Assembly (NCBI GenBank): GCA_031287245.1
Contig: JAITTD010000068.1
Location: 1-37,274 of the forward strand
Direction of reading: 5' to 3'
Length of the DNA stretch: 37,274 bases
Source: Bacteroidales bacterium
GTDB taxonomy: Bacteria; Bacteroidota; Bacteroidia; Bacteroidales; UBA4181
The position numbers and the translations under genes are program-made. This document shows, piece after piece, positions 13,474 through 17,444 of this stretch. The notes below the pieces were generated by a model that was given only the letters and a program-made list of their open reading frames with translations, made no database searches and was not told the DNA's origin. Numbering within the stretch: the first letter of the stretch is position 1; each line of letters opens with the position of its first letter.

Positions 13474-13631
13474 ACACAGATTTTTTTTAAGTAACAAGGC
13501 GCAAAATTAAATAAAAAATAAGTATTTCAAAAATTTCGCGCCCTTTCCACAGGGTCAACGCATTAAAATTTGTAGGTATTGATTCCTGCGATAACCCCTA
13601 CACCGGTGCAAATCGTCGCAGGATTTGAAAA

Positions 13632-14927
13632 TCACGCTTCAATACAAAACGCAGCATAGAGTGGTACTGATTTTATCCCATTTTCAAAGCCGAAATTTTT
13701 CTTCGAGATGCGGATGCCATACGGGCATTTATATTTCTCCATGAACATACCAAAACTTTTGGAACGTATTCTAATTCCGTTTTTGACCTCAACAGGAATC
13801 ACGTCCACGCCTTTTTGGATGACAAAATCCACCTCGGCGGTATTGTCATTTTTCCAATAGAGCAAGGGTATCAGATTGGCAGCAAATGCTTGTGCTACAT
13901 AATTTTCGGCAATCGCTCCCATAAATTGATTGTTTGTTTCAAGGGGTGATAAAATCGCTTGCGTCCCCATTCCCGACCGCATGACAAGCATGCCGACATC
14001 AGACAGATAGAGTTTGAAATCGCTCAAATCAACATACACTTTAATCGGCATGGTTCCGTGTGCTGTTTTTTGGCATTTCAAAATAACGCCTGCGTATTTG
14101 AGCCAGTCGATGGATTCACCGAAAATAGTGGCGCTCCCTCCTTTTTGAACCACATTGTATTGGAATTTGTGATTCTCTTTTGCCAACTGCGCGGGAATCG
14201 ATTCATAGCAGGCGCGCACCTTGATGCTGGTAGCCGATTCGGCATATTTTGACATATCGGCGATATATTCATTCAATATCCTGTTTTGAATATCCGCAAC
14301 TGCCACAAAACTGTTGCTTGCCACAAATTCCTTCACGGCAGCAGGCATACCGCCGACAATCAGATAGTGATTGTAAAGGTCTATCACTGTTGAATGTATA
14401 TCCAAAGGTTCGTTCGTCTCGTAATGCGCTCGAATAGCATTGGCAAAATTTTCTCTCCCCATTGCCCATAAAAATTCCTCAAAATCCATTGGAAACAGAT
14501 TTATTTCATCGACTTTACCCACCGGAAATGAATATTTTTTGCGGTTGACAGCCACGCCAAGCAGCGAACCGGCAGCCACAACGTGATATTCGGGCGCTTG
14601 TTCGCAAAAATATTTCAATGAAGTCAAAGCGCTTTCGCACGCTTGAATTTCATCGAAAACAATGACGGTTTTACCCGGAATAATTCGCTGCAAATGAACA
14701 GATTCCAAGTATTGAATAATCGGCACAGGCGTGATGTTCTCCTCTAATTTCGCTGCTAAGGCTTTGTCGGTTTCCAAATTGACAATAATGTAATTGTCAA
14801 ACTCTTGCTTGCCGAACTCTCGCAAAATATAACTTTTACCTACCTGTCGGGCACCGTTGACAATCAAAGGCATTCTGCTTGACTGATTTTTCCATTTGAC
14901 TAAACCGTCATAAATTTTCCGTTTCAT
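13632..14927 (-). CDS. AAA-family ATPase (AAA_14/DUF4143-type ATP-binding protein)
   Basis: 431 aa with Walker A (GARQVGKS) and Walker B (VIVFDEIQ). The overall pattern is that of the widespread DUF4143 ATPases. Confidence 0.8.
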   Translation of the reverse strand: MKRKIYDGLVKWKNQSSRMPLIVNGARQVGKSYILREFGKQEFDNYIIVNLETDKALAAKLEENITPVPIIQYLESVHLQRIIPGKTVIVFDEIQACESALTSLKYFCEQAPEYHVVAAGSLLGVAVNRKKYSFPVGKVDEINLFPMDFEEFLWAMGRENFANAIRAHYETNEPLDIHSTVIDLYNHYLIVGGMPAAVKEFVASNSFVAVADIQNRILNEYIADMSKYAESATSIKVRACYESIPAQLAKENHKFQYNVVQKGGSATIFGESIDWLKYAGVILKCQKTAHGTMPIKVYVDLSDFKLYLSDVGMLVMRSGMGTQAILSPLETNNQFMGAIAENYVAQAFAANLIPLLYWKNDNTAEVDFVIQKGVDVIPVEVKNGIRIRSKSFGMFMEKYKCPYGIRISKKNFGFENGIKSVPLYAAFCIEA

Positions 14928-14957
14928 TATGCGTCATAAAAATTTCTGCAAAGATAC

Positions 14958-15006
14958 TTTTATCTATGGAAAAATCAAAATTTGATGTATTTTTCCATAG
15001 ATAAAA
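14958..15006. promoter_or_regulatory. Perfect 18 bp inverted repeat (TTTTATCTATGGAAAAAT-N13-ATTTTTCCATAGATAAAA) abutting the -7 box of the ATPase gene
   Basis: The arms are exact reverse complements. The -7 box TATCTTTG (minus, 14949-14956) lies 1 nt away. It could be an operator or the pepD terminator. Confidence 0.6.
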
Positions 15007-15066
15007 ATCTGAAACCTCATTTAATTTTTAATGTCTTTGCCCTGATTTTTAAGCGTTGCCCCTGAC

Positions 15067-15226
15067 ATAACCACGTATAACTATGTATAACCACGTATAA
15101 CTATGTATAACAACCTATAACCACGTATAACCACGTATAACAACCTATAACAACCTATAACAACCTATAACAACCTATAACCATGTATAACCACCTATAA
15201 CCATGTATAACCACTTATAACCCTGT
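15067..15226. repeat. 16 tandem units with an exact 10 bp period (ATAACNNNNT: ataaccacgt, ataactatgt, ataacaacct...)
   Basis: Direct reading; ATAA recurs every 10 bp without an indel. The array ends 3 nt from the pepD stop codon. Confidence 0.95.
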
Positions 15227-15229
15227 ATT

Positions 15230-16681
15230 TCACACCGCTTTCAGTGTCTCCACCAAGTATTTCCAAAACTGCGCCACCGTTGGGATGTTCACTTTTTCGC
15301 CGGGCGAATGTGGGTGCAGGATGGTGGGACCGCAAGAAATAAACTCCATTTCGGGATAGTTTTTGCCAAAAATGGCACATTCCAATCCGGCATGAATCAC
15401 CTTCACAGTTGCCTCTTTTTGAAAGGATTTTTTGTAGGTGTCCTTCATAACGGACAGTATCTTAGAGTTGAAGTTGGGACGCCATCCCGGATAGCCACCG
15501 CTCAGTTCCGCCTTGCTTCCAGCCAATTCTGCCAAAGCGGCGATTTCTTCTGCCAGCGCCTCTTTTGCCGAATCAACCGAACTGCGCAGCAAACAAGCGA
15601 TATTTACCGCTTTGCCGTCGGATTTTACAATGGCTAAATTGGTGGAAGTTTCCACCACATCGGGCATATCGGCAATCATGCGCTGTGCTCCGTTTGGCAT
15701 AACGAGTATCGTGTTGATGATTTTATCCTGCGATGCCTTGTTGATGACTGTTGCGGGCAATGAGGTTTTTTCGGCTGTGAAAATGATGCCCTGTTCCACT
15801 CCGTCCAATTCGGTGGTGATCGTTTTCAGGAAACCGGCTGTATATGCTTGCAAATCGGCGCTTTTGGCAGTCGGCACAGTGATAACCGCTGTGGCTTCAC
15901 GCGGAATGGCGTTGCGCATATTGCCCCCTTCGATGGATGCCAGCCGCACATCGTATTTCGCTGCGGCGTTCCACAGATAACGCGCCAGAATTTTGTTGGC
16001 ATTGCCCCTGCCTATGTTGATGTCGGTGCCGGAATGTCCGCCTTTCAAGCCGGTCAGCGTCAGTTTGCAGGCTTCGGTTGTTTTGTCGGGCGTTTCGCTG
16101 TCGTAGGGTATGGCTATGGTCAGGTTGACGCCGCCTGCGCAACCGATGCACAGTTCGCCTTCTTCCTCCGAATCAAGATTGAGAAAGAAAGAGCCTTTCA
16201 ACACCCCGGCTTGCAATCCGTTAGCGCCGGTCATGCCTGTTTCTTCGTCAATGGTGAAAAGCGCCTCAATGGGTCCATGTGCGAGGTCTTTCGCTTCGAG
16301 CACCGCCAAAGATGCCGCTACGCCGATGCCGTTGTCCGAACCCAGCGTGGTGCCGCGGGCTTTCACCCAGTCACCATCCACATACGGATGTATCGGGTCT
16401 TTCTCGAAATCATGCTGCACATCGTTGTTTTTCTGCGGCACCATATCCAAATGGGATTGCAGCACAACGCCCGGGCGGTTTTCCATTCCTGCCGTTGCCG
16501 GTTTTCGGATAATCACATTGCCGGTCGCGTCAACAGTATAGTCCAACCCCTGTGCGATGGCAAAATTCTTCACAAATTCCACCGCTTTGGCTTCCTTTTT
16601 CGATGGGCGCGGGATAGCGCTCAATGCTGCAAAATGCTTCCACAAAAGTTGTGGTTCTAAGGTATTTAATTCTTTACTCAT
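15230..16681 (-). CDS. pepD: Aminoacyl-histidine dipeptidase (M20C, PepD-like)
   Basis: The start at 16681 (MSKELNTLEPQLLWKHF...) is preferred to the upstream ATG. HLDMV, DNGIG and IDEETGMTGA motifs are present. Confidence 0.85.
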   Translation of the reverse strand: MSKELNTLEPQLLWKHFAALSAIPRPSKKEAKAVEFVKNFAIAQGLDYTVDATGNVIIRKPATAGMENRPGVVLQSHLDMVPQKNNDVQHDFEKDPIHPYVDGDWVKARGTTLGSDNGIGVAASLAVLEAKDLAHGPIEALFTIDEETGMTGANGLQAGVLKGSFFLNLDSEEEGELCIGCAGGVNLTIAIPYDSETPDKTTEACKLTLTGLKGGHSGTDINIGRGNANKILARYLWNAAAKYDVRLASIEGGNMRNAIPREATAVITVPTAKSADLQAYTAGFLKTITTELDGVEQGIIFTAEKTSLPATVINKASQDKIINTILVMPNGAQRMIADMPDVVETSTNLAIVKSDGKAVNIACLLRSSVDSAKEALAEEIAALAELAGSKAELSGGYPGWRPNFNSKILSVMKDTYKKSFQKEATVKVIHAGLECAIFGKNYPEMEFISCGPTILHPHSPGEKVNIPTVAQFWKYLVETLKAV

Positions 16682-16736
16682 GGTTCTTTTATTTATTTTT
16701 TGGGTTGTAAAGGTACATTTATTTTTGATAAAATCA

Positions 16737-17444
16737 CTAATCATTCATAATTATTCCTTCGCTATACACCGGCACAATGTCCGTCAGGTCGATGGTGTGG
16801 CAATAGGGAATCGTGTCTGCGGCGTTGATTTTTCGCAGGCGTTCGTTTTGGGCTGCCTTTTTGATGTAGCCCATCAGGTCGGCTTTTGCCAGCGACCAAA
16901 GATCCATAGCCGCCAGAGCGCTGTCGCATACGGTGGTGAATTTGCCGGTATCCGTCAGTCGTTGCGCCACTGCACCTGCAAACACAGCGTCTTCCAAGTT
17001 AAATCGTCCTTTCCAGCCGGCGCAAAGCAGGAAAACATCACTGTCCCCCGCTTCGAGCCATCGGCATACTGCGCTGAGGTTGAGGTAACTGCCCACTGCC
17101 ACACGTCGGCATTGTGCAGCCGTATTGATAGTGTGCGTTCCGTTGGTAGTGCTGTAAGCAATGGTTTTCCCCGCCACCCGTTCGCGAGTAAAATATTTCG
17201 GAGAGTTGCCGATGTCTGCAAAATCAAGTTTGACGCCATCCCGTTCGGCAGCAATGATATACCTTCCCACGTAAGTTTTCAATTCTTCGATGGTGCTGAC
17301 GGGGATTACCCGTTCCGCTCCGTTCATAAATGCAGTGCAAATGGAAGATGTGGCGCGAAGCACGTCAATAGCCACAGCATTGCAGCCCTCGTGAGGATAG
17401 GATGGAAACTGAACAGGGGTAAAACAAACGTTGATTTGATGCAT
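16737..17444 (-). CDS. comB: 2-phosphosulfolactate phosphatase (ComB) family protein
   Basis: 235 aa with the [20 protein letters not shown] and STTNGT motifs that I recall for the ComB family. Confidence 0.75.

Follow-up and report, generated by a model that had tools for sequence, protein, structure and literature searches.

A decanucleotide array of variable length behind pepD in a Bacteroidales genome: a probable clade-specific intergenic satellite

Introduction

Short-unit intergenic satellites have, to our knowledge, been recognized in bacteria for decades, and their function and origin are unexplained. The STRR repeats of cyanobacteria, for example, are intergenic direct repeats of heptamers. 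Other short direct repeats are bound by proteins: parC of plasmid R1 contains ten 11-bp repeats bound by ParR, and the Omega repressor binds arrays of heptads. A class of long simple sequence repeats with units of 5–11 nt, LSSR5-11, has been defined (Mrazek, Guo and Shah 2007, as summarized in PMC4679880). Heptamer repeats of the TAACTGA type occupy intergenic regions of Beggiatoaceae, cyanobacteria and some Bacteroidetes (MacGregor 2015, PMC4679880), and in the Beggiatoaceae genome analysed they are found mostly upstream of start codons (PMC4679880). Finally, BrickBuilt of Porphyromonas gingivalis is a MITE combined with a minisatellite, has a 23-nt unit and lies 49–591 nt from coding sequences (Klein et al. 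2015, PMC4596501); its leader and tail segments carry small terminal inverted repeats (PMC4596501).

The array considered here lies in a stretch of 37,274 nt, called the window throughout, which is one whole contig of a Bacteroidales draft genome, G000 (2.85 Mb, 328 contigs, 46% GC). The assembly is a fragmented short-read metagenome bin. It is clear that the array is real and that it is a known kind of bacterial repeat, and the mode by which its length changes is demonstrated. In full, it is probably a hypervariable, non-coding decanucleotide satellite, i.e., a VNTR or long simple sequence repeat, that is specific to one clade and occupies the 3′ spacer of pepD. The conserved core of its units leaves a small chance that it is recognized by a specific factor.

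The array and its neighbourhood

The features of the locus are the following.

15067–15226, minus strand: decanucleotide array of 16 units, reading A-N-R-T-D-G-T-T-A-T on the pepD coding strand
15230–16744, minus strand: pepD, aminoacyl-histidine dipeptidase of the M20 family, a 504-aa open reading frame as listed
15023–15066, minus strand: two tandem copies of a dispersed motif of about 20 nt, CAGGG-N-CAA-N-GC..TTAAAAT, directly abutting the distal end of the array
14958–15006, minus strand: perfect 18-bp inverted repeat that separates the array from the −7 box and forms a strong hairpin (z = −5.3)
14949–14956, minus strand: −7 box TATCTTTG of the Bacteroidetes type for the ATPase gene, read directly in the sequence
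13632–14927, minus strand: AAA_14/DUF4143 ATPase gene, an accessory gene downstream of the array

The 10-bp units follow one another head to tail without any indel, and their exact number, 16, comes from a single assembly. On the plus strand the unit is ATAAC-NNNN-T; on the minus strand, the coding strand of both neighbouring genes, it is A-N-R-T-D-GTTAT. TATAAC occurs 15 times in the array at a spacing of exactly 10 bp, and in TRF the array comes out at 15.6 copies of period 10, with 84% matches and an indel rate of 0%. GTTATA is invariant across all 16 units, and the variation is confined to the 4-nt spacer. The three-unit pattern TATAAC-N4-TATAAC-N4-TATAAC is present 13 times in the window, always within the array, and in none of 100 dinucleotide-preserving shuffles, so that by this measure the array is longer than expected by chance in the window sequence. 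The initial annotation had described 16 phased 10-bp units without indel, three nucleotides after the pepD stop and upstream of the ATPase promoter; sequence, TRF and shuffles confirm this, and the array lies 111 bp upstream of the −7 box.

The TGA stop codon of pepD occupies 15230–15232 (minus strand), leaving 3 nt between stop and array. The homologues of pepD, reached via members of its cluster, have 483 aa, 21 codons fewer than the 504-aa frame (window 16682–16744); therefore, the true start is probably 21 codons downstream of the listed one, at about 16681. Exact look-ups of the 504-aa frame and of the ATPase returned no match for either. The ATPase gene begins at 14925–14927 (minus strand), 22 nt downstream of its −7 box; the −7 consensus of Bacteroidetes promoters is TAnnTTTG. 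This gene follows pepD only in the lineage of the window.

The array is non-coding; it occupies part of the spacer that runs from the pepD stop codon to the ATPase promoter, and no long open reading frame crosses it. The palindrome at 14958–15006 is the only strong hairpin and the sole candidate terminator between pepD and that promoter, and is a candidate for the pepD terminator and/or an operator of the ATPase gene. Since it lies beyond the array, the array is probably co-transcribed with pepD, as a portion of its 3′ untranslated region.

The flanks of the array are unique, matching no flank of any other array, and the window copy has no tail of the kind described below. On the distal side, the dispersed motif of about 20 nt has at least 10 copies in the genome in the form CAGGG-[GT]-CAACGC-ATTAAAAT, and an inverted copy stands at 13550–13571, past the other end of the ATPase gene. 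The motif may delimit a cassette that was inserted. Because it abuts the array and recurs inverted beyond the gene, the ATPase cassette may have been inserted at the array end; no link between the motif and ATPase paralogues elsewhere in the genome was found.

A superfamily of arrays in the genome

The array is far from alone. In G000, TRF finds 613 tandem arrays, which cover 48 kb (1.7% of the genome) and have 7, 10, 11, 14, 21 and 23 as dominant periods. At least four phased GTTAYA motifs at 10- or 11-bp spacing are present in 38 arrays, and that of the window is the longest among them with a pure 10-bp period. A general propensity of the genome for phased arrays had been suspected in the initial annotation, which proposed a search for other arrays with 10–11 bp units; the counts above support it, and the search yielded, together with the 38 GTTAYA arrays, a 10/11-bp superfamily of about 125 arrays and 889 units.

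About 90% of the arrays with period 10 or 11 have one skeleton, in which the 7-nt core GT-[TG]-A-[TGC]-[AT]-C precedes R-R-T-D, with one R fewer in the 10-mers. They divide into the subfamilies GTTATA/GTTACA, GTGATAC, GTGATTC (GAATCAC on the opposite strand) and GTGAGAC. Twenty arrays mix GTTA and GTGA units in register, and one orthologous site has GTTATA units in the sister species G012 and GTGATAC plus GTGAGAC units in G000. Since units mix within single arrays, swap at orthologous sites and are built on a common skeleton, the arrays of GTTATA, GTGAGACA and GAATCAC are, judged by their sequences, one homologous superfamily. The earlier view that GTTATA is a separate family with the same helical period as GTGAGACA/GAATCAC is not supported. 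By the same comparison, the common 10/11-bp period is to be read as common descent from one ancestral unit and not as convergence on the helical repeat; with a single ancestral unit, the period of the different arrays would be inherited, rather than reached again and again.

The arrays are often parts of larger assemblies. On their distal side, GTTAYA arrays usually run into GTGATAC 11-mers, the tail TTGTACCWTACGGCAGCGG and then 7/8-mers. The tail is conserved behind many GTTATA arrays, where it is succeeded by 8-mer arrays of the CCGTTCAT type (C19, C51, C66 and C197 of G000), so that the elements have a fixed order of modules.

A GTTACA-rich subfamily (C45, C83, C96, C305 and C214 of G000) has a leader that is conserved and contains a (CA)n or (GA)n run together with the GC-rich palindrome TACGCCCGCGCGTA; its members are often succeeded by an inverted TATAAC array, which gives hairpins of 80–100 bp. 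Inverted pairs of arrays are present elsewhere in the genome as well, and some fill the whole spacer. About 28 arrays of G000 have a 23-nt unit, the unit length of BrickBuilt, and internal hairpins (e.g., C193, C44 and C66).

Many arrays are found at contig ends (e.g., C83, C214, C204 and C172 of G000, and C197 and C283 of G012). It follows that the assemblies are fragmented in large part by these satellites, and the true lengths of the arrays may be underestimated.

Placement and orientation

Where do these arrays lie with respect to genes? With crude gene calls based on open reading frames, 20 of 36 arrays have their GTTATA end no more than 15 nt past the stop codon of a gene on the same strand, and 6 of the 36 have it no more than 15 nt from the start codon of a gene on the other strand. 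Thus, the GTTATA end is near a gene boundary (15 nt) in 26/36 cases and the other end in 1/30 (Fisher p = 5e-9). The abutment on a stop codon, noticed at first for the window array, turns out to be a property of the family. Some of the arrays that abut start codons are the second arm of an inverted array pair. Superfamily arrays lie between convergent genes in 28% of cases, against a baseline of 13.5% (p = 0.0009), and favour intergenic regions that contain the 3′ end of a gene.

Orientation is less constrained. There is no detectable replication-strand bias, with 18 of 35 arrays on the strand of positive GC skew, and between co-directional genes 13 arrays run forward and 6 in reverse with respect to transcription, a weak bias that is not significant. 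For this reason, a strict reading as a 3′-UTR element was dropped.

A broader version of that reading would have the array act in RNA: as a (NNN-GUUAUA-N)n stretch in the pepD 3′ untranslated region, putatively bound by a protein or nuclease, it would set mRNA stability or 3′-end formation. The 20 arrays that begin just after a stop codon speak for it, as do the probable transcription of the window array with pepD, ahead of the only strong hairpin, and the lack of structure that would leave its RNA accessible. Indeed, the array RNA has no predicted structure (fold z = +1.34; 188 of 200 shuffles fold at least as well). We find this explanation very doubtful, however, given that the orientation of the arrays is not fixed, that some abut start codons of the other strand, that a period of 10/11 nt has no meaning for single-stranded RNA and that no Rfam family matches over the array.

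A hairpin-forming inverted-repeat element and an intrinsic terminator were also considered and rejected. Besides the fold score, the window holds no inverted partner of the array (20 TATAAC vs 3 GTTATA), and the promoter/terminator scan gave no terminator and no sigma-70-type promoter match over it.

Gene order is another matter. Synteny between G012 and G000 breaks at 5 of 10 spacers with arrays and at 3 of 28 without (Fisher p = 0.019), in what is a small sample.

The site behind pepD in related genomes

Scaffold_3951 of ENA ERZ28641514, an assembly of the same species made independently from a different sample, has 99.1% identity to the window over 2.5 kb, and 410 of 411 residues of its pepD match. 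Its array has 7 units between flanks that are both identical to those of the 16-unit allele; these are units 1–4 of the window joined to units 14–16. The two alleles are separated by a single 90-bp indel, the junction of which is inside the invariant GTTATAC core. Replication slippage should leave just such a difference, as should unequal homologous exchange from core to core, and the pair of alleles is direct evidence for whole-unit length change by one or the other. One in-register exchange within the core explains 16 versus 7 units, and the length of the array is shown to change by in-register gain or loss of whole units. The initial annotation had held that absence from an independent assembly would speak against it and had called for a measure of length variation in the population. 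The array is present in ERZ28641514, and the variation is there, 16 versus 7 units at 99.1% identity.

The same scaffold bears on the question of whether the array is an artefact, a short repeat spuriously expanded by the assembler. G000 is a short-read bin of 328 contigs and several arrays end contigs, which invites the suspicion; but the array recurs with its flanks in ERZ28641514, related arrays are present in separately assembled genomes, and assemblers tend to collapse rather than expand repeats, so that we give this explanation practically no credence. Nor is the 7-unit allele a simple graph collapse, since the 16-unit allele lacks the k-mers of its junction. Assembly puts only the exact copy number at risk; that the array exists is safe.

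Going further from the window, GCA_025999995.1 (89.7% nucleotide identity) has about 9 units with mixed 10/11 spacing, starting 4 nt after the pepD stop and carrying a tail as in G012, whereas G012 (88.5% nucleotide identity) has 2–3 units plus the conserved tail, starting 5 nt after the stop. In a relative at 85.5% nucleotide identity the next gene starts 5 nt after the pepD stop. The site holds no array in a relative with 91% amino-acid identity, and there is none after pepD in 8 more distant species of the genus (pepD 67–76% amino-acid identity), which have ordinary spacers, with a plain hairpin in several. Each lineage examined has a different gene behind pepD: an ATPase, a metallophosphoesterase, a gene on the opposite strand, an epimerase or a membrane gene that is MBOAT-like by eye. 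The junction downstream of pepD is a rearrangement hot spot.

The families themselves are restricted. Among G000 and 14 other genomes of the genus searched, four GTTATA motifs at 10-bp spacing occur only in G000 and its sister species G012; the other 13 have none, and the same is true of 400 other genomes of the order. GTGATWC arrays are distributed in the same way, and one heptamer family is essentially specific to G000. For 11 array sites of G012, the orthologous position of G000 has an array in 2 cases, single-copy modules in 1 (C8) and an unrelated spacer in 8; at the two sites with an array in G000, its spacer variants are always different from those of G012. These repeat families are young and turn over fast.

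The single-copy case deserves a closer look. Within about 200 bp, C158 of G012 has three arrays in succession, namely GTTATA, GTGATWC and ATTAAC-type heptamers. The spacer of about 45 bp at C8:3593–3609 of G000 has what appears to be each of these modules once, in unchanged order. The pair suggests, from the sequences compared, expansion and contraction in place.

This last point matters for the idea that the array is part of a dispersed element that moves or once moved, comparable to BrickBuilt as a MITE with a minisatellite inside, and that this copy lost its tail when the ATPase cassette was inserted on the distal side. We consider it quite unlikely. Many family members do have the conserved tail TTGTACCWTACGGCAGCGG and ordered modules (GTGATAC 11-mers, then 7/8-mers), and the tail is found behind the pepD-site array itself in G012 and GCA_025999995.1; the window array ends exactly at the dispersed 20-nt motif, which stands on both sides of the ATPase gene in opposite orientations, and BrickBuilt is a precedent from the Bacteroidales (PMC4596501). 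However, the window copy, with its unique flanks, has no leader, terminal inverted repeats or target-site duplication, no transposase is linked to the arrays, and the "empty" site C8 of G000, with its single-copy versions of all three modules, favours expansion in place.

Scans of metagenome contigs for the exact junctions with both flanks gave no match. Five GTTATA motifs at 10-bp spacing were encountered in 39 viral contigs, many of them giant-virus bins, and are assumed to be unrelated AT-rich tandem repeats.

Core and spacer

Within arrays, the variation is strikingly uneven. Counting as a deviation any departure from an array's own majority base, over 167 period-10 and 170 period-11 units, the core positions G1, T2 and A4 and the spacer T have 0–3 deviations per position and the spacer positions 27–56 each. 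Singleton variants, too, avoid the core positions and the spacer T. Unlinked arrays have different spacers fixed and the same core. Pure neutral slippage does not predict an invariant core; hence, the pattern, as read from the units, points to some sequence-specific constraint, be it a binding factor or the mechanism that spreads the units. Ongoing exchange between arrays could be an alternative explanation of core conservation.

What would such a binding factor be? A putative clade-specific protein might polymerize on T-D-G-T-K-A-K-W-C cores 10–11 bp apart, so that the array would be one of its binding sites, and the resulting nucleoprotein filament would insulate or organize the intergenic DNA, much as in the scaffold proposed in the initial annotation. 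This is unlikely, if by no means far-fetched. The invariant core beside a freely varying 4-nt spacer, with singleton variants depleted in the former, is consistent with it, and so is the occurrence of the same core at more than 100 unlinked loci and, despite complete turnover of the spacers, in three lineages. The 10/11-bp spacing would suit it as well, in particular in mixed arrays, which average about 10.5 bp (10.1–10.75 bp per unit), near the helical repeat. Against it, the pure 10.0-bp period of the window array falls out of step with a 10.5-bp helix by about 270 degrees, or three quarters of a turn, across its 160 bp, and the single origin of the superfamily makes of the period one observation and not many. 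No candidate protein came to light, and every array has different genes beside it. Among close relatives, one site ranges from 0 to 16 units and most array sites of G012 are empty in G000; therefore, no locus depends on its array.

The same argument can be made for the superfamily as a whole, as a genome-wide cis-element of a putative clade-specific, sequence-specific factor, either a DNA-binding protein that polymerizes along one helix face or a recombinase or nickase that recognizes and propagates the units. We consider this, too, unlikely. If true, it would explain much at once: why the T-D-G-T-K-A core does not vary, why the period is near-helical, why the arrays sit flush against gene ends with one polarity and why they are linked to breakpoints of gene order.

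Curvature

From the phasing at 10 bp, strong curvature had been anticipated for the array. Two dinucleotide wedge models, each with its own parameter set, do not support this. The modelled curvature is 9–12 degrees per turn, at the 77th–82nd percentile of the window, and equals the mean of arrays with shuffled units, 51–53% of which are at least as curved. Controls with phased A-tracts reach 25–29 degrees per turn, so that the array attains about 40% of their value. The unit has no A-tract, and the longest run of A in any unit is 2. Strong intrinsic curvature is thus rejected within these models, as is an assignment to phased A-tract curved DNA, which has A/T-tracts of at least 4 bases and curvature well above background. 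Only a moderate sustained bend is predicted, as for any 10-bp repeat.

A curved element that tunes the downstream ATPase promoter is accordingly a very improbable explanation. It is true that exact 10-bp phasing sums any bend per unit, that the modelled path of the 160-bp array is among the 4–5% most compact in the window and that the array lies 111 bp upstream of the −7 box. Nevertheless, the curvature does not exceed that of shuffled units, roughly one family member in four is placed between convergent genes, where no promoter follows, and a 7-unit allele exists with the same promoter.

Origin and persistence of the satellite

The most sensible account, then, is that of a satellite placed between the pepD stop and the hairpin and promoter of the next gene, as one member of a clade-specific intergenic superfamily of about 125 arrays. 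It grew from a short seed that three lineages, now with 2–3, about 9, and 7 or 16 units, inherited behind pepD from their common ancestor, and its copy number shifts by in-register gain or loss of whole units through slippage or unequal exchange. Weighing against this account are the uneven variation within arrays, the polarity of their placement at gene boundaries and the near-helical mean of the mixed arrays. It presumably persists because DNA just 3′ of a stop codon tolerates insertion, and we infer no dedicated role at the pepD locus other than a longer pepD 3′ untranslated region. The array may also supply dispersed homology that promotes rearrangement, a possibility raised by the different gene downstream of pepD in every lineage examined.

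The pepD site has its own value as a clean natural series, with 0, 2–3, about 9, 7 and 16 units at one orthologous position, and the pair of 16- and 7-unit alleles pinpoints the exchange inside the conserved core. The contrast between core and spacer, the polar position at gene ends and the enrichment at synteny breaks are handles on broader questions. Are these selfish or neutral repeats? Or is there a specific factor that recognizes them? On a practical level, the arrays fragment metagenome assemblies and could serve as strain-typing markers for the lineage.

Comparison with known systems

Plasmid centromeres and iterons resemble the array in having direct repeats of 7–11 bp with a conserved core, in or near helical phase. 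They are, however, single loci beside the genes of their binding proteins, whereas more than 100 chromosomal loci with unrelated neighbours are involved here. A centromere-like or iteron array was rejected on the lack of an adjacent cognate gene: its neighbours are the genes of the M20 peptidase and of the ATPase (AAA_14/DUF4143), neither partition nor replication genes lie close by, and the 38–125 loci have unrelated neighbours.

BrickBuilt is closer in several respects, since both are found in Bacteroidales as dispersed, strictly intergenic minisatellites of variable copy number, and some members here are tailed as well. The window array differs in its 10-nt units, unique flanks, lack of inverted repeats and position 3 nt from a stop codon. 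The defining features of a MITE of the BrickBuilt type, namely leader, tail and inverted termini, the 23-nt unit and the distance from genes, are all lacking, and a tail is seen only at other copies and in relatives.

With the heptamer repeats, the arrays have in common that they are intergenic and tandem, that they hug gene boundaries and are missing from the same spacer in close relatives, that they co-occur with other short-unit arrays and that a link to gene rearrangement is suspected. The unit is 10/11 nt instead of 7 nt, and the arrays lie mostly after stop codons.

There remains LSSR5-11, or VNTR, as the class is outlined in the published summary. The published class is dominated by heptamers and not by decamers as here. 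Other differences from that outline are the imperfect units, with an invariant core of 6–7 nt and a free 4-nt spacer; the homologous superfamily of 125 members, with mixed 10/11-nt periods and ordered modules; and the core end of the arrays, flush with gene boundaries. The likeness is nevertheless extensive. In both, short units stand head to tail in non-coding DNA over lengths far above chance; abundance is sporadic and lineage-specific, and copy number varies between close strains; and growth is put down to slippage, with no dedicated function supposed. In every property of the class that was tested, namely a unit of 5–11 nt, a length above chance, whole-unit variation between strains and a non-coding position, the array behind pepD agrees with it.
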